Source of the DNA: a bacterium
GTDB lineage: Bacteria > Patescibacteriota > Minisyncoccia > Phycocordibacterales > UBA2100
Direction of reading: 5' to 3'
Assembly: GCA_021781955.1 (NCBI GenBank)
Contig: JAJXVV010000001.1
Span: 95,519 to 159,518 of the forward strand
Length of the DNA stretch: 64,000 nucleotides
In this document: one piece after another, positions 3,330 to 46,394 of the stretch
Layout of the letters: every line of letters begins with the position of its first letter
Position numbering within the stretch: position 1 is the stretch's first letter
Program-made: the position numbers and the translations under genes
Notes under the pieces: generated by a model
Told to the model about the DNA's origin: nothing
The model's database searches: none
What the model saw: the letters and a program-made list of their open reading frames with translations, nothing else

Positions 3330-3878
3330 ATGGGACCGCAAGAACAGAGCGTTGACCAGCAATTAGCGGAGCAGTTCAAGGGGCTGCCGCCGGTGGTGCA
3401 GAACGCCATCACATCCGCCGACGTGCAGAAACACCTGCGCGACCTCGCGAATACCCACAAGCTCCACCTCGATCAATGGCAATTGCTCGAGAACGAGGTC
3501 ATGCTGACCTTGCTCGGCATCCAACCCATCGAGAACCTCGAACAAAACATCAAGAACGAGGTCGGCGTGCCTGCGGAAGACGCCAAGGCGCTTGCCGAGG
3601 ACATCTCCACAATAGTCTTCGAGCCGATCCGCGAAGAACTCGAGCGCGCGCTCAACAATCCCGACGCGAAGGCTGCGGCGGAAAGCGATGTCGAGGCCGC
3701 GCGGACGCAGGCGCTCGCCGCAGAACGCGCGGCGGCGGTCGCGCCGGCGACGCCGCCGCCTCCGCCGCCCGAGCAGAAAGCCGAACGCGCGCAGATCTCG
3801 CAGGCATACGCGTCGGGGGAGAGCTCGACCGCGCGCAAGAACATCCACGACGACCCCTATCGCGAGACGCCGCAGTGA
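3330..3878 (+). CDS. Hypothetical soluble protein with Pro/Ala-rich C-terminus (T4SS operon member)
   Basis: ORF starts 1 nt after upstream stop; no TM segments; PPPPPP tract; no recognisable family. Confidence 0.45.
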   Translation: MGPQEQSVDQQLAEQFKGLPPVVQNAITSADVQKHLRDLANTHKLHLDQWQLLENEVMLTLLGIQPIENLEQNIKNEVGVPAEDAKALAEDISTIVFEPIREELERALNNPDAKAAAESDVEAARTQALAAERAAAVAPATPPPPPPEQKAERAQISQAYASGESSTARKNIHDDPYRETPQ

Positions 3879-10341: not shown

Positions 10342-11079
10342 TTACTGTTTCGGCCGAAAACGCCTCCCTGCGAGGAGTTCTTGCCCGATCATGAAAACAT
10401 TGCTCGTGACCCAATAGAGCGGCGCGGCCGCGGCAACGGTATAGCCGATGACTCCGATCATCGCGGGCAGGACGTAGCGAGCCTGAAGATCGAAGCTCCT
10501 CGCCATGTCCCCCGAGAGCGAGGCCTCCACCGGGGTCGATTCCGGAACTTTCTCGCGCGGCCCCATGGAGAGCCTCGTGTAGGTGAACTGCGTCGCCGCC
10601 GCAAGGAGCGCAAGGAGCGCGCTGCGCGCGCTCATGTCGATGAGCCCCAAGAAATGCATGTTTATAGACGCTGGCACGTGAACGAACGAATAGAGCAGAT
10701 TTGCGTGCACGTCGGGAAACCCACTCCGGTAAAAGACCCAGTAGAGCGCGATCAGAATGGGGAACTGTATGAGCACGAGGCCGAAGCTCGCGAACGGGTG
10801 TATGCCGCGCTCTTTATAGAGCGCAAAAACCGCCTGGCTTTGCTCCGGCGAGTTCTTCTTGTATTTTTTCTTCACTTCCTCGACCTCCGGCGCGATCTTC
10901 TTCATCGCCAATTGCGCTTCGACTGCCCGACGTGAAAGCGGGTAGAGAATGACGCGCACAACGACAGTGAGCGCTACCACCGCGAGCCCCATATCATGAT
11001 AGGGGAGGATGCCGACCAAAAAAACGAGCCCGTTGTAGAGCGGGTTGTAGATAAGCGTCGAAAACAAGGCCGAAAGCAT
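10342..11079 (-). CDS. yidC: YidC/SpoIIIJ membrane protein insertase (short Gram-positive-like form)
   Basis: Multi-TM 245 aa protein with motifs LVLIQFPILIALYWVF and YPLSRRAVEAQ; conserved operon context. Confidence 0.85.
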   Translation of the reverse strand: MLSALFSTLIYNPLYNGLVFLVGILPYHDMGLAVVALTVVVRVILYPLSRRAVEAQLAMKKIAPEVEEVKKKYKKNSPEQSQAVFALYKERGIHPFASFGLVLIQFPILIALYWVFYRSGFPDVHANLLYSFVHVPASINMHFLGLIDMSARSALLALLAAATQFTYTRLSMGPREKVPESTPVEASLSGDMARSFDLQARYVLPAMIGVIGYTVAAAAPLYWVTSNVFMIGQELLAGRRFRPKQ

Positions 11080-11085
11080 GCCGTG

Positions 11086-11439
11086 TTATTGTAGCGCGCT
11101 GTCACCCTTGGCGCCAACGACGCCGGACCGCTCGGCAAGCGACCGCAGATCTTCCTTGAGCGCCGCGAACGACGCATCAGCGGCGCTTCGCTTCGCATGG
11201 AAGATGAGTGCGATCGGCGCGCGGCTATTCTGCAGGAGCGGAGCGAGCACTGCGCGGGCTCGCCTCTTCACGAGATTACGCGAAACCGCTTTTGCGGAGG
11301 CCTTTTTTGATACAACGCATGCCCACTTAATGCCGTCCCCACATCGGGCGACCGAGAGAGAGAAGTGCGCACCATACACCCGTCTCAGCGGTTGCAGTGA
11401 CTTGAAATCATCGCTTGAGAGGCGTTGGGAATGTGCCAT
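11086..11439 (-). CDS. rnpA: Ribonuclease P protein component
   Basis: 117 aa basic protein, motif VSRNLVKRRARAVL; immediately downstream of rpmH. Confidence 0.8.
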   Translation of the reverse strand: MAHSQRLSSDDFKSLQPLRRVYGAHFSLSVARCGDGIKWACVVSKKASAKAVSRNLVKRRARAVLAPLLQNSRAPIALIFHAKRSAADASFAALKEDLRSLAERSGVVGAKGDSALQ

Positions 11440-11441
11440 CG

Positions 11442-11576
11442 CTACACCGAGAGTTTCGCGCGGCCCTTGCGGCGGCGGCGCTGGAGCACGCGGCGCCCGG
11501 TGGGGGAAGCGCTACGCTTCAAAAAACCGTGCGTGCGGGCTCGCTTGCGTTTCTTTGGCTGCCACGTGCGTTTCAT
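11442..11576 (-). CDS. rpmH: 50S ribosomal protein L34
   Basis: Hand-translated minus-strand ORF absent from the track (44 aa): [44 protein letters not shown], canonical L34. Confidence 0.85.
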
Positions 11577-11705
11577 GCGCACAACTATACCTATTTTCCG
11601 CTCAGGCACAAGAGCGACTAATGCTCGCCGCCAATCCCCACACTATCCACACCTTATACACTCACGCGGCATGCACTTCGAACACTTCCCTTGTATGGCG
11701 GCGCG

Positions 11706-11711
11706 CGTATA
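11706..11711 (+). promoter_or_regulatory. TATAAT -10 element upstream of dnaA; DnaA-box-like CTATCCACA at ~11643-11651
   Basis: Perfect TATAAT 32 nt upstream of the dnaA start; 8/9 match to TTATCCACA in the rpmH-dnaA spacer. Confidence 0.35.
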
Positions 11712-11742
11712 ATGGGGAACTCCGTATGAATTTTCGCTCCGT

Positions 11743-13104
11743 ATGACGATGACGACGATGAGCAATAGAGAGTTGTGGCAGAACGCCCTCGTACAGATCG
11801 AGCTCGGCACTTCACAGGCTTCGTTCCGAACCTGGTTCAAGAACACCGACATCACGAGCCACAACGGCGGAACAGTGCAGATAGCCGTACCGTCGAAGAT
11901 CGTGAAGGAGTGGCTTATGGACAAACACCACAAGCTTATTTTGCGCGCGCTGCGCTCCCTCGACGACACTATCCGTACCGTCGAATACTCGGTCCACCGC
12001 ACCGCCATACCCACTGAGCGCAAACCGGTCCGCGAACCCATTCCCGAGAACGCGTCCCTCGACCTCGGTTCGCTCTATATAGATAAACGGGATAATCTGA
12101 ACCCGCGCTACACATTCGACACTTTCGTCGTCGGCCCTTTTAATGAGCTCGCGCATGCGGCGGCACAGGCGGTCCTTGAACGTCCCGGCCTTATGTACAA
12201 TCCGCTTTTCATTTATGGAGCGACGGGACGAGGCAAAACACACCTCATTCAGGCGATCGGCAACTACTTCAAGAAGACCCGCACCAACAAGAAGGTGCTC
12301 TACGTGACCTCCGAGCGGTTTTCCGTAGACTACATCAATGCGGTGCGCGCCGGACACGCAAACAACTTCAAGGATCAGTACCGCCAGTACGACGTGCTCA
12401 TCATGGATGATGTCCAATTCATCGCGAACACGGAAAAGACCCAGGAAGAACTCTTTCACCTCTTCAATGTGATGCGCGATAACAACAAACAGATCGTGTT
12501 CTCCTCCGATAAACACCCCGCGCTTCTTCCGGGGCTCGAGGAACGCCTTAAGGGACGCTTCGCCTCTGGTATGATCGCCGAAATACCGGAACCGGACCTT
12601 GAATCGCGCCTCTCGATCATTCGGGCGAAACTTGAAAGCCACGGCTTCTCGCTCCCGGAGGACATAATCACGTACATTGCCGAAAACTTACGCGGCAACA
12701 TCAGGGAGATCGAGGGCGTGCTTAATATGATCGTCTGTAAATCACAACTCAAAGGCCGCGGGGTCTCGCACGCCGACGTCCGCACCCTTATCAAACACAA
12801 CATCAAGCCGAACAGGGGGGTTTCGATTGATGAGGTAGTGCGTCGTATCGCGCAATACTACGAGATCGCAGAAAAGAGCATCTACGAAAAAACGAGAAAA
12901 AAGGAGGTGGTGAAGCCGCGCCAAATCATCATGTATATCCTGCGAGAGGAATTTAATGTGTCGTACCCGACGATCGGCGAGAAACTCGGAGGCAGAGACC
13001 ACACAACCGTCATCCACTCATGTGAAAAAATAAAAGAGGAAGTGAAATCAAACCCGTCGCTCGAACAAGAGCTTGATTATATCCGCACCATTATCCATGC
13101 ATAA
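11743..13104 (+). CDS. dnaA: Chromosomal replication initiator DnaA
   Basis: AAA+ motifs GATGRGKTHLIQAIGNYF, box VII, C-terminal DNA-binding helix; 453 aa. Confidence 0.95.
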   Translation: MTMTTMSNRELWQNALVQIELGTSQASFRTWFKNTDITSHNGGTVQIAVPSKIVKEWLMDKHHKLILRALRSLDDTIRTVEYSVHRTAIPTERKPVREPIPENASLDLGSLYIDKRDNLNPRYTFDTFVVGPFNELAHAAAQAVLERPGLMYNPLFIYGATGRGKTHLIQAIGNYFKKTRTNKKVLYVTSERFSVDYINAVRAGHANNFKDQYRQYDVLIMDDVQFIANTEKTQEELFHLFNVMRDNNKQIVFSSDKHPALLPGLEERLKGRFASGMIAEIPEPDLESRLSIIRAKLESHGFSLPEDIITYIAENLRGNIREIEGVLNMIVCKSQLKGRGVSHADVRTLIKHNIKPNRGVSIDEVVRRIAQYYEIAEKSIYEKTRKKEVVKPRQIIMYILREEFNVSYPTIGEKLGGRDHTTVIHSCEKIKEEVKSNPSLEQELDYIRTIIHA

Positions 13105-13325
13105 GATGTGGATACTCACTTAGTAGAATGTGAGTATGTGTATCAATAAAACAACCGAACCAGCAAAAAAATCACTGTCCACACACTCGCCAATACTTCA
13201 TCAAGAACATTTCCACACACACCACCCGCAAAAAAAACATCATTCTTCAACCTAAAATCAACTTCTCCACACTATCAACACCCCTAATAGTAATAATAGG
13301 ATTTTTAATAAAAAAGATATCCACT
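13105..13325. promoter_or_regulatory. Candidate oriC: AT-rich dnaA-dnaN spacer with a DnaA-box cluster and DNA unwinding element
   Basis: Local AT-rich island in a ~62% GC window; five motifs matching TTATCCACA at 7-8 of 9 positions in one orientation (TGTGGATAC 13107-13115 on the opposite strand, CTGTCCACA, ATTTCCACA, TTCTCCACA, ATATCCACT); AT tract aatagtaataataggatttttaataaaaaag at 13285-13315. Confidence 0.55.
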
Positions 13326-14423
13326 ATGAAGATGAAGATCCGGGTTGAAAAACTCCTTGGTGCGGTACTCCTCGCGGAGCGAGTGGTGGGCAAGAAGGAA
13401 TCACTTCCAATACTTTCCTGTATTCTCATCGAGGCACGTAAAAATAATGTTCGCGTGAAAGCGACGAATCTTGAGTCCGGTTTAGAGATCGTTATACCGG
13501 GAGATGTTGGTGTGGATGGTGTGGTGGCGGTACCGGCCGCTATCTTATCGCAAACACTCAGGTCTATTTCTGGGGAGATGGTCGAGTGCTCGGTTGAAGA
13601 GGGGAATCTCGCGATAAACACAAAAAAAACAAAAACCCTCATAAAGGCGGTACCTCACGACGAGTTCCCATTACTCCTAAAAACAACAGAAGAAGGTGGT
13701 GTTAGTATTCCCAAACAAGAGCTAATCAAAATCATACAGTCGGTTTCCTACGCGGCATCCCCATCCATGGTTCGGCCAGAGCTCGGCAGCATCTTCATTT
13801 CCATGAATGCGAGCTCGATGCTCTCGGTCGCGACCGATTCGTTCCGGTTGGCTGAAAAGGCCATTCCCATGCATGGGAAGGGTTCGGTCGAACTTTTGAT
13901 ACCACTTAAACATGCCCAGGAGCTTGCGCGTATACTCGAATATGTCGTTGCGGAGACGGTATCCATGTTCGCAGGGGATTCACAGGTGGTGGTGCGCGCC
14001 GATGGTGTGTCATACGTCTCCCGTGTTATTGAGGGTAATTTCCCAAACTACAAAGAGATCCTACCGAAGAGTTTCATGACGGAAGCCACACTCCTTAAGG
14101 GTGAATTCGCGGACATGCTGCGTAAGGCGCGGGTGTTCGCTGGGTCCGATCAACACGTCGGGCTTCATGTGTACCCAAAACGGAAGGTTTTTAGCGCGAC
14201 CGCACACAATACTGAGGTTGGTGAGATGTCGGACGTGATCGATGCCGCGCTCACGGGTGAGGATATCGATATTAATTTCCACATAGGCTATCTTGGCGAC
14301 TGTCTCGCTTCGATCGAGGCTGACTCCATCACCCTCGGCTTCTCCGGCGCGGGGAAACCTCTCGTGATGCGAGGCGCGTCGGACGCATCGTTCACCTACC
14401 TGGTGATGCCGCTCAATCGGTAA
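13326..14423 (+). CDS. dnaN: DNA polymerase III beta sliding clamp
   Basis: 365 aa; three-domain clamp-like sequence; canonical position after dnaA. Confidence 0.9.
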   Translation: MKMKIRVEKLLGAVLLAERVVGKKESLPILSCILIEARKNNVRVKATNLESGLEIVIPGDVGVDGVVAVPAAILSQTLRSISGEMVECSVEEGNLAINTKKTKTLIKAVPHDEFPLLLKTTEEGGVSIPKQELIKIIQSVSYAASPSMVRPELGSIFISMNASSMLSVATDSFRLAEKAIPMHGKGSVELLIPLKHAQELARILEYVVAETVSMFAGDSQVVVRADGVSYVSRVIEGNFPNYKEILPKSFMTEATLLKGEFADMLRKARVFAGSDQHVGLHVYPKRKVFSATAHNTEVGEMSDVIDAALTGEDIDINFHIGYLGDCLASIEADSITLGFSGAGKPLVMRGASDASFTYLVMPLNR

Positions 14424-16874
14424 TTATTGGACCGCGAAGGTCACACTAGCGACACTTGTTGAGCCATCAGGATGGAAACCGACCGCGCGCAAGGTCATGG
14501 CGCCCGGTGATCGAGGTGTGAAAGGAATTTCATAGGGTGAAGCGGTGGAGCCGATGAGCGACCCGTTCAGGTAGTAGGAGATGGTAGTGATAGGCGCATT
14601 CGATGTTTGGGTCGATTTGAGGATGATGGTCGTCCCAATCGGGATGATGGCGCCCGCTTGCGGCGAAGTAATATGAATATCTGGTTGCGCGACTGGCGCT
14701 TGAGTGGGCGACGCGGATTGCGAGGGGGTGTTGATTGGTGAGTTGAGCCCGGCTCCCGTGGTCAGGCCAGGGTTCTCCTCCGCCCAGAGTTTCACGGGGT
14801 ATTCCCAGTAAGTGAACTGCGGATCGCTCTCAGGGTTGGTTGGTTGGCCGCCGAGCGGGTTATTTTTGTTGATCCAGTAGAGGATGCTGTGCACGCCTTG
14901 CGCGGGGTCGGTGTTCCAGTTCCCGGTCAAGACCGGCGGCAGGGAAGCGAGGTTGGGGTTTGGCGCGGGAGGCGGGAAGGTATCGGTAGGGGAGGAATAT
15001 TTCTGGAGCGCCTGCATCATGAAGTCGTGCCACATCGGCGCGATGATGAACGCGGAGATCTTCTTCGCCATCGGCGTGTTGTCATTGTTGCCGGCCCACG
15101 CACCAACCGCGATTGATGGCGTATAGCCTAAGACCCACACGTCGCGGAAGTCGTTGGTCGTTCCGGTTTTATCAGCAACGTCGTAGCCATCGAACTGGAG
15201 CGGGCTCTCCAGTCCGAAATCAGGCTCGCGCGCGGTGTTATCGGAGAGCATGTCATTGATCTGCCGCGCGATTTGCCGATCGAGTACCTGCTGGGGCTGT
15301 TGTTGGTAGCTCTCGAGCACCTTGCCGGTATTATCGGTCACCTGAAGAACGCCGGTCGGCGGATTCTTCACGCCGTCGTTGGCGAACACGGCATAGGCGC
15401 CGGTCATCTCGAGAAGGTTTACCTCGCCGCCGCCTAAAACGAGCGTGAGGCCGTATTTGCTCGGGTCGCCGAGGGTGGTGATGCCGAGTGATTGCGCGGT
15501 CGCGAGCGAATCGTTGATGCCGGCCAGGTAAAGCACTTTGACGGCCGGGACATTCTCCGATTGCGCGAGCGCGTCGCGGAAGCTCATTGGCCCCTTGAAC
15601 TTGCCGTTAAAATTGACGGGCGCGTAACAGGGCGGCGTACTGTTTGTCGTATCTTGCGGAGAACAGGCGGTGGAGAATTGGGTCGGCAGGTCGAAGACGA
15701 CCGTGTCCGGCGTGTAGCCTTTCTCGAGGGCGGTCGCGTACACGAACGGCTTGAACGACGAGCCCGGTTGCCGCAACGCAAGCGTCACATTAACCTGTCC
15801 ATCGATCGCGTTGTTGAAGTAGTCGCGCGATCCGACCATCGCGAGGATCTGACCGGTCTTCGGGTCGATGGCGACAATGCCCTCATTGCTCGCATTGAAA
15901 TCTTGCTGCATTTTATCGCCCCACTTCGCGACTGTCGCTTCCGCTTTCTGCTGGAGATCGTAGTCGAGTGTCGTGATGACGCGCAGTCCTCCGTTTTCGA
16001 CCGCATCGGTCCCATACTTTTGTTCGAGATAGTCGAGGACGTAAAAGACGAAGTGCGGGGCTTTGATCCCGGCATTACTCGGCGGCTTGAACTGCACTTG
16101 CTCGCCGATGGCCTGGTTGTACTCGTCCTGCGTGATGAAACCGAGGTCTTTCATGCGACCCAGAATGTAGTTCTTGCGCGCGTCGAGATCGGATCTATGG
16201 TTACCGTAGGGTGAATAGTAGGTAGGTGCCTGCGGCAGCGCGGCAATGTAGGCGGATTGCGCGAGATCGAGATCCTTGGCATCGACCCCGAAAAAGGCTT
16301 GGCTCGCCTCCTGTACGCCGTAGATAGTGCCGCCGTACGGCGTTTCATTAAGGTAGGCATTGAGGATGTCGTTCTTCGAATACGTTTGCGTGAGGCGGAG
16401 CGCGAGGATGATCTCCTCTATCTTGCGGGGGATAGTTTTGTCCTGCGTCAAGAGCGCGTTCTTTACGACTTGCTGCGTGATGGTCGAACCACCTTGCGCA
16501 TAGGAGTGTGTAAAGAGATCGATGAATGCCGCGCGCAAAAAGGAAAGCGGACGGAAACCGGCATTGGTATAGAAGGTGTCGTCCTCGGTCGCGATGGTCG
16601 CCTCCTGAACGTAGGAGCTTATCTCGTTGAGCGGGACCGAGGTGCGCCGTACGCTGCCGCTCATGTCGTAAAGAACGATGTTGCCGGTGCGATCGTAGAT
16701 CTTGGTCGATTGTGCGACCTGGCGGTTCTCGAAGTTGTTGATGGCCGGTATCGGCGTGAATGTCGCCCAGAGCACGGTTGCCCCGAGAATGAGGAAGACG
16801 ATCGCTCCAATCACGAGCAAGCTGACCTCAAGCCACGCGGGGACCCTGCGCCGCATTTTTCGCAGCGATTTCAT
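14424..16874 (-). CDS. mrcA: Class A penicillin-binding protein (bifunctional transglycosylase/transpeptidase) with C-terminal Ig-like extension
   Basis: N-terminal TM anchor; GT51 motifs EDDTFYTNAGF and GGSTITQQVVKN; transpeptidase domain; 816 aa. Confidence 0.9.
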   Translation of the reverse strand: MKSLRKMRRRVPAWLEVSLLVIGAIVFLILGATVLWATFTPIPAINNFENRQVAQSTKIYDRTGNIVLYDMSGSVRRTSVPLNEISSYVQEATIATEDDTFYTNAGFRPLSFLRAAFIDLFTHSYAQGGSTITQQVVKNALLTQDKTIPRKIEEIILALRLTQTYSKNDILNAYLNETPYGGTIYGVQEASQAFFGVDAKDLDLAQSAYIAALPQAPTYYSPYGNHRSDLDARKNYILGRMKDLGFITQDEYNQAIGEQVQFKPPSNAGIKAPHFVFYVLDYLEQKYGTDAVENGGLRVITTLDYDLQQKAEATVAKWGDKMQQDFNASNEGIVAIDPKTGQILAMVGSRDYFNNAIDGQVNVTLALRQPGSSFKPFVYATALEKGYTPDTVVFDLPTQFSTACSPQDTTNSTPPCYAPVNFNGKFKGPMSFRDALAQSENVPAVKVLYLAGINDSLATAQSLGITTLGDPSKYGLTLVLGGGEVNLLEMTGAYAVFANDGVKNPPTGVLQVTDNTGKVLESYQQQPQQVLDRQIARQINDMLSDNTAREPDFGLESPLQFDGYDVADKTGTTNDFRDVWVLGYTPSIAVGAWAGNNDNTPMAKKISAFIIAPMWHDFMMQALQKYSSPTDTFPPPAPNPNLASLPPVLTGNWNTDPAQGVHSILYWINKNNPLGGQPTNPESDPQFTYWEYPVKLWAEENPGLTTGAGLNSPINTPSQSASPTQAPVAQPDIHITSPQAGAIIPIGTTIILKSTQTSNAPITTISYYLNGSLIGSTASPYEIPFTPRSPGAMTLRAVGFHPDGSTSVASVTFAVQ

Positions 16875-17931: not shown

Positions 17932-18005
17932 AATCCATCTGCGTGCTTAGCCTCCAGGGTATAGGGAATAAGAAAATAATGCAAAGACACAGATTCGCGC
18001 ACAAG

Positions 18006-18050
18006 TTATCCACATAGGTATCCACCGTTATTCGCACGAGAAATCCACGG
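18006..18050 (+). promoter_or_regulatory. Array of DnaA-box-like motifs at helical spacing (TTATCCACA, GTATCCACC, TTATTCGCA, AAATCCACG)
   Basis: Perfect TTATCCACA at 18006-18014 followed by three xxATCCAC variants spaced 10-13 bp apart, same orientation; upstream of the yebC-ruvC operon and of the terminator-flanked non-coding stretch. Confidence 0.35.
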
Positions 18051-18342
18051 TTTCGCTGCCCGACGAGCACGCGGCGTTCATGAGGAATGCCGTACCATCA
18101 AGGGTCTGATGCGCCTTACCGTGCGTCAGCATCGCCAGCGAATCGCGCGCAAGCGCGAGGAGGAAGCGGTCGCTCCGTGAGTCTGTCCCGACGAATGTCG
18201 GGAGACACTGCGGGAGCAGTCGGCCAGAAGTGGTGGGATTGGTGCGGGAGCGAGGCCACATGCATCGCTTTCGGGCTCGCGCGTAGAGATCGTATCGAAG
18301 CGCGCGACCGCGCCTGCCGTAGATCCAAAATGGCCGAAACGA

Positions 18343-18371
18343 AAACGCCTCCCTTTTGGGGAGGCGTTTTC
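18343..18371. terminator. Bidirectional rho-independent terminator AAAACGCCTCCC-TTTT-GGGGAGGCGTTTT
   Basis: Perfect 8-9 bp GC-rich stem, 4 nt loop, flanked by A4 and T4 tracts. Confidence 0.7.
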
Positions 18372-18477
18372 GATACCGTGCGCTACGCGTATTCTTGCAC
18401 AACAAATCGCACACAAGCGCGTTATCCCCATGTTGCTATACTGCGGGGGAGGGGTCGTTAATAGATCACCTTCATGT

Positions 18478-18931: not shown

Positions 18932-19966
18932 TCATAAAAGCTTTTCCTGCGTGTGGGGCAGGTCAGCGCCGATGTGAGAATGGCCTTTTTTCGTGACGGC
19001 GCGGCCGCGGGGGGTGCGCTCCAAGAGCCCGATCTGCATGAGATAGGGCTCGTTCACCTCTTCGATGGTCGCTTCTTCTTCCGAAAGAGCTGCCGCGATG
19101 GTCTTGAGCCCCACCGGGCCGCCGCCGAATTTTTCCACGACCACCGTGAGGATGTCGCGATCGGTTTGATTGAGGCCGAGTTCATCTATCTCCAAAAGCG
19201 CGAGCGCCTTTTTCACGGTCTTGAGGTCGAGCTGTTCGTCGTTCACGTCGGCGAAGTCGCGCGCGCGCTTCAGTAAGTAGTTGGCGGTGCGCGGCGTGGC
19301 GCGCGAGCGGCGCGCTATTTCCATGAGCGTCGCGCCGTCGACGGCTATTCCTAGAATGTCGGCGGAACGTTTGAGTATTTCCGCTATCTCCTCGTCGGTG
19401 TAGTAGTTGAGGCGGAACGTGCCGCCCGAAAAACGCGAGCGCAGCGGCGCGGAAAGCATCGAAATGCGCGTCGTGGCGGCGATCAGCGTGAAGGGCGGCA
19501 GTTCAAGCTGCACCGTGCGCGCGGCAGGGCCTTTGCCGATGACTATGTCGAGCACGCCCGCCTCCATCGCCGGGTAGAGCACCTCTTCGATGGTGCGGTT
19601 GAGGCGATGGATCTCATCGATGAAGAGCACGTCGCCGGGCGAGAGGTTGGTGAGGATGCTCGCGAGGTCGCCGACGCGCTCGATGGCGGGGCCGGAGGTC
19701 GAGCGCATGGAGGCCCCGATCTCTTTAGTCATCAAATTCGCGAGTGTCGTCTTGCCCAGGCCAGGCGGGCCGTACAAAAGCACGTGCTCGGGCTGGTGAT
19801 TGCGGCCTTTGGCGGCCGTGAGGAGGATGCGGAGATTCTCTTTGATGCCGGTTTGGCCGACGTACTCGCGCCAGTCGGCAGGACGCAGCGCTGCGTCGAG
19901 CGAACGAGGCGTTTTTTCTATATGTTTTTGATCTTTGTTGGTCATACGAGGCTCGGCGGCTGCCAA
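18932..19966 (-). CDS. ruvB: Holliday junction branch migration ATPase RuvB
   Basis: LLYGPPGLGKTTLANLMTKE Walker A, FIDEIHRL Walker B, sensor and winged-helix regions. Confidence 0.95.
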   Translation of the reverse strand: MAAAEPRMTNKDQKHIEKTPRSLDAALRPADWREYVGQTGIKENLRILLTAAKGRNHQPEHVLLYGPPGLGKTTLANLMTKEIGASMRSTSGPAIERVGDLASILTNLSPGDVLFIDEIHRLNRTIEEVLYPAMEAGVLDIVIGKGPAARTVQLELPPFTLIAATTRISMLSAPLRSRFSGGTFRLNYYTDEEIAEILKRSADILGIAVDGATLMEIARRSRATPRTANYLLKRARDFADVNDEQLDLKTVKKALALLEIDELGLNQTDRDILTVVVEKFGGGPVGLKTIAAALSEEEATIEEVNEPYLMQIGLLERTPRGRAVTKKGHSHIGADLPHTQEKLL

Positions 19967-19996
19967 GAATGGAGGCGCGAAGGCTCAGAAAATGGC

Positions 19997-20024
19997 TTGA
20001 CAACTCATTTTAATATGCTATACT
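19997..20024 (+). promoter_or_regulatory. Near-consensus sigma70-type promoter TTGACA-N16-TATACT
   Basis: TTGACA 19997-20002, 16 nt spacer, TATACT 20019-20024; no protein-coding gene downstream on this strand. Confidence 0.45.
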
Positions 20025-20030
20025 CTCCTC

Positions 20031-20245
20031 CAGTTGGTTCCGCCGCATGCGGACTCTTCGCTCAGGGAGTCTGCAGGCGCACAGTACCGGGCAATGGTGG
20101 CTTCTCCAAGGACGAGACGGCGATGCTATCTCTATCCTCAGGATCATGTCGCAACTTTTCTACAAAAGCATTGCCCGGTACTGCGCACCTACTCCTAGCG
20201 GCCACGATAGCATCTCATTACCCCCGCGCAACGGGGGTTTGTGGT
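20031..20245 (+). ncRNA. Candidate structured small RNA (~215 nt, 6S-like long hairpin?) between ruvB and pilB
   Basis: Starts just downstream of the promoter above; ends at hairpin CCCCCG-CGCAA-CGGGGG + TTTGTGGTGT (20221-20247); internal long-range inverted repeat GCGCACAGTACCGGGCAATG (20078-20097) and CATTGCCCGGTACTGCGCAC (20169-20188); no credible ORF. Confidence 0.25.
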
Positions 20246-20303
20246 GTAAAACTTCGTGCCGCGCCTTCCCGGATATGTTTTGAGAGCGGTGTTTCCCACG
20301 TGT

Positions 20304-22007
20304 TCACGTGATCGTCTCGAGCGTCACGTTGTCCGTGAGGTCGACCACGCGGCCGAGCTCCTCGAGCGCGGTGACGCCTTGCAAGACCTTCACCGCGCCG
20401 TCCTGCGCCATGCGGCGGATATTCTGGTGCTTTGCCGCCGCCCATATCTCACGCTCGGAGGAGGTGTGGCGCACGCACTCCTCTATCGCGTGGTCCATGA
20501 GTATCACCTCGACGACCGCGATGCGGCCCTTGTAGCCCAAGCCGCCGCATTTCTCGCAGCCTTTGGGCAGCCACATGATGTCGCGATTGGCCGGCAGCTC
20601 GTCGGCGTGCGGAATGGCGCGGAGAAGCGGCTCCATAAGCTTGCGCGAGGCGTCATCGATCGGCGTCGGCATGCGGCAGTGCGGGCACAAGCGGCGCACG
20701 AGGCGCTGCGCCATCGCCACGGTCACTGAAGCGCCCAAAATATCGGCGTTGACTCCCATATCTATCAGGCGAGGGAAGGTGCCGGCGGCGTCATTGGTGT
20801 GGAGCGTGGAGAACACGAGGTGGCCGGTGAGCGAGGCGTGCACGGCCGTCGAGGCGACTTCGGCATCGCGGATCTCGCCGACCATGATGACGTCCGGGTC
20901 TTGGCGCAAGGTGCTGCGCAAACCGGAGGCGAACGTGTAGTCCTTCGAGACTTGCGTCTGGACGATGCCGGCGAGGTGGTACTCGATCGGGTCCTCGATA
21001 GTGATGACCTTGATCTGCGGCGAGGCGACGTGCGAGAGGAAGGCGTAGAGCGTCGTTGTTTTTCCGGAGCCGGTCGGACCGGTGTTGAGTATCATGCCGT
21101 TCGGCTTCGCGATTTCATGATCGAAAATCTCCATGAGGTATTTGTCGAATCCGAGCGCGTCCATGGGGAGCGATATTGTCGTCGGATCGAGCACGCGCAT
21201 GACGATGGTCTCCGCATAGGAGCCGGGAAGCACGGAGGTACGTATTTCGATCTCTTTTTGATTGACCACGATAGAGAAGCGGCCGTCCTGCGCGGCGTTC
21301 TTGATGTTGAGCTTGAGGCCCGAGAGCAGCTTGATGCGGGAGGAGACGAGCGCGTACGTGGGCGGATCGAACATGGTGGCTTCGACCAAAACGCCGTCGA
21401 GGCGGTAGCGCATACGGACGCCCGCGTCCTCAGGTTCCAGGTGGATGTCTGAGGCACTGAGCGCGAGTGCGCCGCTCATCATGATTTCGAGCACGCGCGA
21501 GATGCGATGTGTGTCTTTCGAGCCCGCATGCGACCCGATCTCGGCTTTCACATCGGCGAGCGTTCGCAGCTTGCCGAGCATCTCTTGGATGGTCTCGTTG
21601 GAGAGCGTGAGGACGCCTGCCTCGGTCTCGGTCGCGTATGAAATGTCGCGATAGCGGTCCCATGCATGCTCAAGCGAGGCCTTCGAGACGATGAAGCGGT
21701 GCGGACGATAGCCCAAGCGCTCGAGGTCGGCCAGGGCCTGGAGCGCATCGGGCCGCTCCGGCGCGCGCATCGCGAGGAACACGTCCTTATTGACCTTATG
21801 GAAGGCGGCGACTTCGGCCGGACGGGCCCGCTTCTCGTCGACGAGGCGAAGCGCGTCGGTGTCGATCGATCTTGAGGTGAGGTCGACGTACTCGACGCCA
21901 TACTTGTGCGAGAGCATCTCCGCGAGCTGCTCTTCTTCGCGCGCGCGGAGCTCGCTCAACCGCTCCTGCGATTTCTTGTCATTGAACTGCATCGCCATTC
22001 CCTCCAT
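20304..22007 (-). CDS. pilB: Type IV pilus assembly / type II secretion ATPase PilB/GspE
   Basis: Walker A NTGPTGSGKTTTLYAF, Asp/His boxes, C-terminal tetracysteine CPHC...CEKC zinc motif; 567 aa. Confidence 0.9.
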   Translation of the reverse strand: MEGMAMQFNDKKSQERLSELRAREEEQLAEMLSHKYGVEYVDLTSRSIDTDALRLVDEKRARPAEVAAFHKVNKDVFLAMRAPERPDALQALADLERLGYRPHRFIVSKASLEHAWDRYRDISYATETEAGVLTLSNETIQEMLGKLRTLADVKAEIGSHAGSKDTHRISRVLEIMMSGALALSASDIHLEPEDAGVRMRYRLDGVLVEATMFDPPTYALVSSRIKLLSGLKLNIKNAAQDGRFSIVVNQKEIEIRTSVLPGSYAETIVMRVLDPTTISLPMDALGFDKYLMEIFDHEIAKPNGMILNTGPTGSGKTTTLYAFLSHVASPQIKVITIEDPIEYHLAGIVQTQVSKDYTFASGLRSTLRQDPDVIMVGEIRDAEVASTAVHASLTGHLVFSTLHTNDAAGTFPRLIDMGVNADILGASVTVAMAQRLVRRLCPHCRMPTPIDDASRKLMEPLLRAIPHADELPANRDIMWLPKGCEKCGGLGYKGRIAVVEVILMDHAIEECVRHTSSEREIWAAAKHQNIRRMAQDGAVKVLQGVTALEELGRVVDLTDNVTLETIT

Positions 22008-33984: not shown

Positions 33985-34560
33985 TCAGGAGTCTGAAGAT
34001 CCCAAGACGCGAAGCGCTTCGCGCAAGCGGGCCGAGCTGCCCTCGATGGTCGCAGGGACTTTTTTCAGCGCTTCGCGCGCCTCCGCTTGCGAATAACCGA
34101 GCGCGCGCATCGCCTCAAGCGCCTCCTCATCGCCCTTGAGCGACGCGCTTTGCTGATCGGGCGCGCCGACCTTGTCTTTCAGTTCGAGTACGATCTTCGC
34201 GGCGGTCTTCTTGCCGATGCCGGAGACGTTGGTGAGGTATCCCGCGTTCCCTGCAGCGATCGCTGCGCGCAGCGTGCCGATTGAAGCGGTGTCGAGGGTC
34301 GCGAGCGCTGATTTTGGGCCGATGCCCGGTACGGTGAGCAATAACTCGAAGAAGTGCAACTCCTCCTGCATGGAGAATCCATACAGATCGAGCGCATCTT
34401 CGCGCACCGCAAGGTGCGTCCAGAGCGACGCAGAGGCGCCTGGCTTGAGCGAGGCAAGCGTTTCGCGCGTGGTGGCTACCTTGTAGCCAACGCCGCCGAT
34501 CGAGATAATGGTTGCGCCCGCGTGCGCGCTATGCACGACCCCTTCCAGATGTCCGATCAT
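33985..34560 (-). CDS. ruvA: Holliday junction DNA helicase RuvA
   Basis: MIGHLEGVV start, HhH motifs LLTVPGIGPKSA and VSGIGKKTAAKI. Confidence 0.9.
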   Translation of the reverse strand: MIGHLEGVVHSAHAGATIISIGGVGYKVATTRETLASLKPGASASLWTHLAVREDALDLYGFSMQEELHFFELLLTVPGIGPKSALATLDTASIGTLRAAIAAGNAGYLTNVSGIGKKTAAKIVLELKDKVGAPDQQSASLKGDEEALEAMRALGYSQAEAREALKKVPATIEGSSARLREALRVLGSSDS

Positions 34561-46266: not shown

Positions 46267-46350
46267 GCGCAGGTGGCGAAATTGGTAGACGTACTACCTT
46301 GAGGTGGTAGCGCCCGCAAGGGCATGGGAGTTCGAGTCTCCCCCTGCGCA
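46267..46350 (+). tRNA. tRNA-Leu (anticodon GAG), type II
   Basis: Acceptor GCGCAGG/CCTGCGC, anticodon stem CTACC/GGTAG with loop TTGAGGT, long variable arm, T-arm GGGAGTTCGAGTCTCCC. Confidence 0.85.
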
Positions 46351-46394
46351 CTTTCAGATCAGGCTCCCGTCCCTGACACGGGTATGATACCGAT

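Follow-up and report, generated by a model that had tools for sequence, protein, structure and literature searches.

What does the gap beside ruvB encode? In a stretch of 64,000 nucleotides (64 kb) from a bacterium of the Patescibacteriota (Minisyncoccia, Phycocordibacterales, UBA2100; assembly GCA_021781955.1, contig JAJXVV010000001.1, positions 95,519 to 159,518), hereafter called the window, 337 bp (19967-20303) lie between ruvB and a gene for a T2SSE/PilB-type ATPase. An initial annotation, made by a model from the letters of the window, had proposed that this gap contains a free-standing structured small RNA (sRNA) of ~215 nt with its own promoter and terminator. This proposal holds up well, since both the signals and the fold recur in relatives and covariation is heavy. 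Judged by this comparison, the feature is a free-standing structured sRNA gene on the plus strand, whose transcription signals are predicted, and the gap holds the gene for a structured non-coding RNA (ncRNA) of a family unmatched in Rfam 15. The role of this RNA and its close association with ruvB are discussed after the evidence for the gene itself.

Transcription signals and fold of the RNA

The elements of the gene within the window are as follows, where P1 to P5 denote the helices in the order in which they are opened along the RNA and MFE stands for minimum free energy:

19997-20002, plus strand: -35 box (TTGACA) of the sRNA promoter, assigned by sequence
20016-20024, plus strand: extended -10 element TGcTATACT (TG at 20016-20017, TATACT at 20019-20024; spacer of 16 nt)
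~20031, plus strand: transcription start, placed from the position of the promoter
20031-20247, plus strand: predicted primary transcript, a structured sRNA of ~215 nt bounded by promoter and terminator
20049-20074, plus strand: 5' leader hairpin of the MFE fold (GCGGACUCUU / GGGAGUCUGC)
20074-20096 with 20169-20191, plus strand: P1, closing helix of 22 bp, in which 96.4% of the cells pair (92 sequences)
20097-20101 (GUGGC) with 20148-20152 (GUCGC), plus strand: P2, 5 bp, with 5/5 pairs compensatory
20105-20121 with 20125-20143, plus strand: P3-P4 arm, with a conserved core and a variable tip
20109-20113 (AGGAC) and G20114 versus 20133-20138 (UAUCCU), plus strand: core of the P3-P4 arm, paired across two 1x2 internal loops
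20155-20159 with 20164-20168, plus strand: P5 hairpin, CUUUU-CUAC-AAAAG
20204-20212, plus strand: 3'-tail motif ACGAUAGCA, found in Kaiserbacteria-type copies only (A..AUA.CA.C invariant in 7 copies)
20221-20247, plus strand: intrinsic terminator (CCCCCG at 20221-20226, loop CGCAA, CGGGGG at 20232-20237, forming a 6-bp GC stem, then UUUGUGGUGU)

The near-consensus promoter TTGACA-N16-TATACT proposed for 19997-20024 was located at that position, and its -10 box is further extended by the TG dinucleotide. When promoters are scored as the -35 matches plus the -10 matches plus 2 for the TG (maximum of 14, a scheme of our own), this promoter attains 11 of 12 with the extended -10 in addition, and it is the sole site with at least 12 of 14 on either strand of the window. 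These traits are shared by the family as a whole, in which the extended -10 is present in 90/90 loci and TTGACA is perfect in 86 of the 90, and the promoters score 11-13 out of 14. Between the -10 and P1 lie 12-161 nt (median of 83), a leader that usually carries a 5' hairpin. Moreover, a U-run lies directly 3' of P1 in ~59 of 92 copies, so that P1 itself would form the terminator stem there, while Kaiserbacteria copies contain a 3' tail and a separate terminator instead. In the window, this terminator is the GC hairpin with U-tract that had been proposed for 20221-20247. It is absent from the output of a simple terminator scan, and an equivalent hairpin followed by UUUUGUGGUSU is found in four relatives (L094, L092, L091, and L081), with different terminators in L093 and L001. 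The sRNA is probably highly expressed.

Folding of the predicted transcript, one of the checks put forward in the initial annotation, yields an MFE of -99.7 kcal/mol for the 217-nt stretch, compared with -71.3 +/- 4.9 for shuffled sequences (z = -5.75), and none of 200 shuffles is as stable. This fold, obtained from the window RNA alone, already contains P1, P2, P3-P4, and P5. The long-range helix of ~20 bp that had been noticed by eye corresponds to P1, an inverted repeat of 22 nt (20075-20096/20169-20190) with 91% complementarity, and the suspected 5' hairpin GGACUC...GAGUC is also present, with the MFE fold pairing 20049-20058 with 20065-20074. Other Kaiserbacteria copies form a different 5'-terminal hairpin, AGAAGCGG...CCGCUUUU.

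Throughout the family, the closing helix is near-perfect and spans 22-25 bp. The junction that it closes is three-way in the Kaiserbacteria copies, including the window, which are devoid of P1a, and four-way in most lineages by virtue of this small hairpin, located between P1 and P2. In the P3-P4 arm, the core (AGGAC-G / Y-AUCCU in the conserved fold) is followed by a covarying 4-bp segment (P4b), a near-invariant G-U/G-C step, and then the variable tip, which contains 17-nt insertions in relatives. Of the 27 homologues from genomes, which were collected without recourse to this motif, 22 contain the AGGAC/AUCCU core. In P5, the stem CUUU/AAAG is conserved, with 4/5 pairs compensatory, and the loop varies in both sequence and length.

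Covariation, strand and taxonomic range of the family

The search for compensatory mutations in related genomes, also put forward in the initial annotation, provides comparative evidence for the fold. In a 7-sequence alignment, RNAalifold predicts 57 pairs, 23 of which are compensatory. In nine diverse sequences, 91.9% of the cells pair and 37/46 pairs are compensatory, and with 92 sequences these values are 92.6% and 36/46, compared with only 43-49% of the cells when partners are slid by 1-3 columns. The covariation score amounts to 0.400 for the 92 sequences versus 0.06-0.10 for slid partners, and 0/500 shuffles reach any of the observed measures. In P1, 19/22 pairs are compensatory in this alignment. 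Moreover, a structure-blind mutual-information scan ranks pairs of P1, P2, P4, and P5 at the top and adds two outer pairs to P1 and one covarying pair in P1a; beyond these and the known helices, the scan reveals no pseudoknot or tertiary covariation.

Since folding energy is equal on both strands (z = -5.71 for the reverse complement), the assignment of the strand was left to the comparative data. In the paired cells of the 92-sequence alignment, 480 G-U pairs are found versus 58 A-C mismatches, and in the Kaiserbacteria set 30 versus 4. These counts would be reversed on the ruvB strand and, thus, the RNA strand is the one opposite to ruvB. Reverse-strand scores of the covariance models (CM) are ~24-90 bits lower, while the RNAalifold energies of the two strands differ modestly and do not decide the question. 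These counts bear directly on the possibility that the functional structure resides on the minus strand, either as a 5' leader (riboswitch or protein-binding leader) in the ruvB mRNA or as an element between the cistrons of a pilB-ruvB transcript. Such a leader would fit the equally good fold of that strand, the promoter-like minus-strand site that precedes the structure in loci of the Kaiserbacteria type, and the absolute linkage to ruvB, which is typical of leaders. However, it would turn 480 G-U pairs into A-C mismatches, compared with 58 in the converse case, and it would require the structure to be part of the ruvB mRNA, whereas most lineages have their ruvB-strand promoter on the ruvB side of the structure, which leaves the structure outside this mRNA. 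In addition, pilB is not a constant neighbour, and nearly all loci carry a consensus promoter and a U-run or terminator on the plus strand. Consequently, a ruvB riboswitch or 5' leader was rejected, with the signals opposite to ruvB and the strand wrong, and a minus-strand element in general is considered very improbable.

Still less credence is given to a DNA-level or trivial element, namely a miniature inverted-repeat or repetitive extragenic palindromic element (MITE/REP), a bidirectional terminator, or a small coding gene. The gap is intergenic and contains a long inverted repeat as well as two overlapping ORFs of 54 and 78 aa, which could be taken as signs of such an element. Nevertheless, the window holds a single copy in 64 kb, the long-helix arm sequence is unique in it (0.01 chance matches expected), and the element occupies one fixed locus, always that of ruvB, in all genomes, which led to the rejection of a MITE/REP repeat. 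The asymmetry between G-U and A-C is a signature at the RNA level and the internal helices covary. As for the overlapping ORFs, their frames are broken in relatives by indels of 17, 2, and 1 nt, so they are not conserved, while the changes in the helices are compensatory.

By its RuvB protein, the window is assigned to Candidatus Kaiserbacteria (Parcubacteria), with many relatives at 82-91% identity, and nhmmer found a homologue of the gap directly upstream of ruvB and on the opposite strand in every Kaiserbacteria locus fetched (L001 and L081-L095). Two CMs were built, R1 from seven copies and R2 from nine diverse copies, and the copy of the window is matched by both at 20072-20218 (144.9 and 101.3 bits, respectively). 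R1 returns weaker matches, at the same place and on the same strand, in eight distant genome loci (L096/L097, L015, L003, L008, L002, L067, and L013). R2 adds 13 loci (L011, L010, L004, L012, L006, L009, L016, L014, L007, L005, L038, L022, and L017), labelled as Zambryski-, Ryan-, Sung-, and Nomurabacteria, Minisyncoccia, and Paceibacterota, and gives no comparable match in Buchananbacteria, three other loci labelled as Candidate Phyla Radiation (CPR), Firmicutes, Chloroflexi, and other loci searched. Altogether, the genome-derived homologous loci amount to 27, all of them from Parcubacteria. A DNA-pattern scan of metagenome contigs, which was blind to gene order, found at least 120 loci, although the pattern contains ATCTCTAAG, AGGACG, and YATCCT and, thus, the invariance of these segments is partly imposed. 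The genomes were scanned in their ruvB neighbourhoods. The family is inherited vertically across the Paceibacteria-type Parcubacteria (Kaiser-, Zambryski-, Ryan-, Sung-, and Nomurabacteria, and Minisyncoccia).

The initial annotation had also recommended a CM search for 6S/SsrS, signal recognition particle (SRP), and other RNAs, and had seen a resemblance to 6S RNA in the size and rod-like pairing. None of the families of Rfam 15 matches the RNA, either in the gathering search of the whole window, at E<=10 for 19900-20350, or at E<=5 for the eight distant homologues, and a gathering search of 137 kb from relatives leaves the family likewise unmatched. The sole match at E<=10 on the gap is a mir-1419 hairpin with 19 bits, judged to be due to chance. 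Moreover, the RNA is not described in the literature searched on ncRNA of CPR and Parcubacteria, 6S, SRP, and ruvB-linked motifs, a search in which subscription journals were outside the coverage.

The resemblance to 6S RNA (SsrS, RF00013) did not withstand this comparison. If the RNA were the 6S RNA of this lineage or a functional analogue, it would sequester sigma-70 RNA polymerase by mimicking an open promoter. Both are single-copy, free-standing genes of ~200 nt (150-220 nt in the present family) with a strong sigma-70 promoter, long 5'/3' helices, and a probably abundant product, and P5 is placed like the 3'-side bubble hairpin of some 6S RNAs. Rfam saw no 6S gene in the sequences scanned, a weak argument given that these are ruvB neighbourhoods only. 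In contrast to 6S RNA, the present RNA has no RF00013 match within the limits given above, and the region where the central bubble would be expected is closed by P2, with all of its pairs covarying, and by P3, which results in a closed three- or four-way junction. P1 is a regular, near-perfect duplex and not an irregular bulged stem, strong sequence conservation of an internal-loop core such as AGGAC/AUCCU is not a 6S trait, and the linkage to ruvB is obligatory. The identification with 6S is therefore regarded as quite improbable.

Other known RNAs were rejected as well. SRP RNA gives no match (RF00169/RF01854) and, by eye, the apical tip is variable and lacks a GGAA/AGCA motif. RNase P, tmRNA, 5S, hammerhead, T-loop or tRNA-like RNAs, and S15 sites were compared by eye with the consensus of the family and none of them fits. 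The segment CAAGGACGAGACGGCG of the window resembles a segment of the guanidine-III riboswitch, but it lies in the variable P4b and is not conserved, so this likeness was discarded. A retron msr-msd was also rejected, as the neighbours are ruvB and the PilB-type ATPase gene and not a reverse transcriptase. As a separate observation, one Kaiserbacteria contig (P0043) other than the window carries a gene for a 530-aa protein with RVT_1 and trypsin domains just downstream (far side) of ruvB, which may be a defence-type reverse transcriptase.

Linkage to ruvB and the geometry of the predicted facing promoters

Two traits of the locus were overlooked by the initial annotation, namely the head-to-head linkage of the sRNA gene to ruvB and a probable promoter on the opposite strand inside the 3' part of the gene. 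The features concerned are the following:

18932-19945, minus strand: ruvB, the divergent neighbour (alternative TTG start at 19966)
20304-22007, minus strand: T2SSE/PilB-type ATPase gene, at the other flank of the gap
20231-20204, minus strand: candidate promoter-like site toward ruvB (TTGCGC at 20231-20226, 16 nt, TGC, TATCGT at 20209-20204)

In 27/27 genome loci, ruvB is adjacent and divergent. The same arrangement is found in 112/112 testable loci among the at least 120 pattern matches listed, of which 7 lie at a contig edge. One metagenome match (L117) was rejected as a chance occurrence inside a coding region, without the 3' arm and without a CM match, and no true copy apart from ruvB is found among the 27 genome loci and the metagenome matches listed. 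Thus, ruvB is the only constant neighbour, while the far side is occupied by PilB alone, a Gp49/HTH toxin-antitoxin pair, a response regulator, or small ORFs. The toxin-antitoxin pair (Gp49/HTH_3, HigB/HigA-like) is inserted between pilB and the sRNA gene at 1305-1968 of L081-L084, which shows that the pilB side of the RNA is variable.

The predicted promoters of both genes are closely interlocked. In 51/82 loci (including L002, L003, L008, and L013), the -35 box and the ruvB start codon share bases, always in the same register, TTGACAT being the reverse complement of ATGTCAA, and RuvB starts with Met-Ser in these lineages because the codons lie in the promoter element. An extended -10 on the ruvB strand is located within the sRNA leader in 57/91 loci, with the perfect form TGCTATAAT in 43, and the facing transcripts would overlap by exactly 33 nt in about half of those loci, a value that equals the median. 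The window and the other Kaiserbacteria-type loci have their ruvB start at a distance of 30-50 bp from the -35, and the TTGCGC site listed above is the only ruvB-strand candidate scoring at least 9 in the window, L092, L091, and L094. The -10 and -35 of this site are the reverse complements of, respectively, the conserved tail motif ACGAUAGCA, which reads TGnTAT..T, an extended -10, on the opposite strand, and the terminator loop GCGCAA, kept in 5/5 copies with a window-type terminator (ACGCAA in L091). This site may give a ruvB 5' untranslated region of ~230-250 nt, fully antisense to the sRNA, so that on the ruvB strand the sRNA region may be part of a longer ruvB mRNA in the window. The predicted start sites of the ruvB mRNA correspond to TGCTATAAT or TGCTATCGT.

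This geometry raises the possibility that the main purpose of the element is the control of ruvB in cis, through promoter competition, polymerase collision, and antisense RNA at the 5' end of ruvB, with the fold acting as a strong terminator or stabiliser. The absolute linkage among testable loci, the fixed register between -35 and ATG in 51 of the 82 loci, the TGCTATAAT element opposite the sRNA promoter with a modal overlap of 33 nt, and the service of P1 with its U-run as a terminator are all consistent with such control, and Kaiserbacteria-type loci have their only good ruvB-strand promoter past the sRNA, with full antisense overlap as a result. Nevertheless, a terminator or stabiliser has no need of a covarying multi-helix junction with conserved internal loops maintained throughout the class. 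Moreover, the antisense overlap is not universal (none in 12/91 loci, promoter not found in 16/91), whereas the fold is. No complementarity to the ruvB translation start is detected beyond chance with RNAduplex against shuffles (median z = -0.11, with z < -2 in 2/31 loci). On balance, control of ruvB as the main purpose is possible but the less convincing explanation.

The position of ruvA provides another perspective on this linkage. In the window, ruvA is located at 34009-34560 on the minus strand, 14 kb from ruvB, whereas it lies directly upstream of ruvB and on the same strand in the CPR loci L019 and L054, which are devoid of the RNA, as well as in ruvB loci outside the group. The ruvA-ruvB operon is split exactly in the RNA-carrying lineages and, with ruvA displaced from this position, the RNA gene sits in the slot that ruvA holds elsewhere. 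The presence of ruvA in the window led to the rejection of the idea that the RNA replaces RuvA. A further explanation, compatible with the one favoured below, regards the RNA as a scaffold, regulator, or decoy that partners the RuvB protein. Genes for structured RNAs often lie beside that of the protein partner, and here ruvB is the sole constant neighbour, the RNA gene occupies the place vacated by ruvA, in contrast to the ruvA-ruvB arrangement kept by L019 and L054, and most members contain a four-way junction. Against this partnership, the interdigitated promoters suffice to explain the linkage, the Kaiserbacteria copies, including that of the window, have only a three-way junction, no RuvB feature peculiar to these lineages was noticed, although no search aimed at one was made, and bacterial RuvB is, to our knowledge, not known to act as an RNA-binding protein. 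A partnership with RuvB is thus considered unlikely.

Several known systems resemble parts of this arrangement. In pairs formed by divergently encoded enterobacterial sRNAs or divergent type I antitoxin RNAs (OxyS-oxyR, GcvB-gcvA, IstR-tisB, and OhsC-shoB), an sRNA lies head-to-head with a protein gene, with shared or overlapping promoters and sometimes antisense overlap at the 5' end. Those sRNAs are short, consist of hairpins, exert their effect through base pairing, and have a neighbour that encodes a transcription factor or a toxin, whereas the present RNA has a complex covarying junction, its neighbour encodes a DNA-repair motor, and no complementarity is found beyond the physical overlap. 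The face-to-face pR/pL promoters of coliphage 186 constitute an interference module, similarly composed of a strong and a weaker promoter, here predicted, with starts tens of bp apart (modal distance of 33 bp in the present family), so that polymerase footprints and transcripts would have to collide. In the present case, the strong arm would make a structured RNA instead of an mRNA, and the predicted overlap in the window is longer (~165 nt or more). Finally, OLE RNA-oapA, bacterial Y RNA-rsr, and tmRNA-smpB are structured ncRNAs, orphan in nature, encoded beside the gene of a partner protein. The present family shares with them a conserved multi-helix core, a variable periphery, vertical inheritance, and constant adjacency to a protein gene, but it has no sequence or model similarity to them, its partner is putative, and its adjacency is explained more simply by overlapping promoters.

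Likely role and meaning for Paceibacteria

The explanation that we favour, and consider more probable than not, combines both aspects of the locus: an abundant, protein-binding sRNA that acts in trans and whose promoter competes with that of ruvB. The RNA would form an abundant, nuclease-resistant, protein-bound stable particle, in which the internal loops of P3-P4 and the junction would constitute the recognition surface, with the variable tip, the loop of P5, and P1a, where present, as the periphery. A particle recognised by protein is suggested by the conservation of core and junction alongside variable tips and by vertical inheritance in very small genomes, and a conserved core with a variable periphery is the pattern of housekeeping ribonucleoprotein RNAs. 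P1 would serve both as the terminator stem in most lineages and as a clamp protecting the ends and, as a duplex of >20 bp, would be a plausible substrate of RNase III. In most lineages, the ruvB promoter TGCTATAAT would face the sRNA promoter, with starts ~33 bp apart, while in the window the promoter directed to ruvB would be situated past the sRNA 3' end. The strong sRNA promoter, when active, would then compete with the transcription of ruvB and cover part of the ruvB leader with antisense RNA. Interdigitation of the promoters would be a sufficient explanation for the fact that both genes are never separated.

Several points weigh against this combined explanation. The trans-acting ribonucleoprotein role is read from the pattern of conservation and nothing else, and both ends of the transcript are predicted, as is its abundance. 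Cis-regulators, more typically than trans-acting housekeeping RNAs, are tied absolutely to one gene. The five most distant genome-derived copies (L014, L005, L038, L022, and L017) deviate from AGGAC/AUCCU. The opposite strand in the window may also be transcribed, as its candidate promoter suggests, and the reverse complement folds equally well. Furthermore, the structure of the model guided the larger alignments and a pattern defined the metagenome set, so that the slid-partner control and the mutual-information scan are the fairer measures of covariation.

Some additional observations were made in the window and in relatives. Between yebC and a DoxX gene (17932-18429), a non-coding block of ~400 nt is conserved in L092, L091, L001, L093, and L094, with nhmmer E values from 1e-59 to 8e-13 in these Kaiserbacteria loci and substitutions without 3-base periodicity (116/108/103). 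It contains a two-way terminator-like hairpin, AAAACGCCUCCCC-AAAA-GGGAGGCGUUUU, near 18342-18370, conserved stretches such as GACGCACGGUAAAGCGCAUCAG, and DnaA-box matches at 18006 and 18422. Rfam gives no match for this block and its fold reaches a z of only -2.06; the block may represent either a regulatory region or another RNA that lacks annotation. Around 11000-14500, the cumulative GC-skew minimum coincides with a dip in G+C (0.54) and with dnaN (13326-14423), and DnaA-box-like sites occur at 11046, 11643, 13107, and 13263, which suggests a replication origin ~7 kb from the sRNA gene. ARAGORN locates a tRNA-Leu(gag) at 46267-46351 on the plus strand, which is unlisted in the Rfam gathering search. 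In a Parcubacteria metagenome contig (L172), a SAM-I riboswitch is found at 3590-3697 on the plus strand, ~2 kb from the ruvB-sRNA pair.

The CPR comprises a large share of bacterial diversity; the genomes of its members are tiny, and very few of their regulatory or structural RNAs have been described. In this context, the family described here is a new one of a familiar kind, a structured bacterial sRNA, and not categorically new; its unusual trait is a -35 box that overlaps a protein start codon in a fixed register. A database entry for the family would end the annotation of this gap as hypothetical ORFs, and the locus constitutes a natural and testable case of promoter interlocking that fixes gene order. 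There is also a tentative possibility, which we hold to be doubtful, that this is a new ribonucleoprotein RNA, present throughout the Paceibacteria lineage and tied to Holliday-junction processing, either as a partner of RuvB in the slot of ruvA or through reciprocal coupling with ruvB. If such reciprocal coupling were true, it would provide genomes poor in regulators with a simple means of switching between growth and DNA repair. In any case, an element retained throughout the class in reduced genomes and interlocked with the start of ruvB likely matters to the cell, and it offers a candidate entry point to the control of recombinational repair after the split of ruvA and ruvB.

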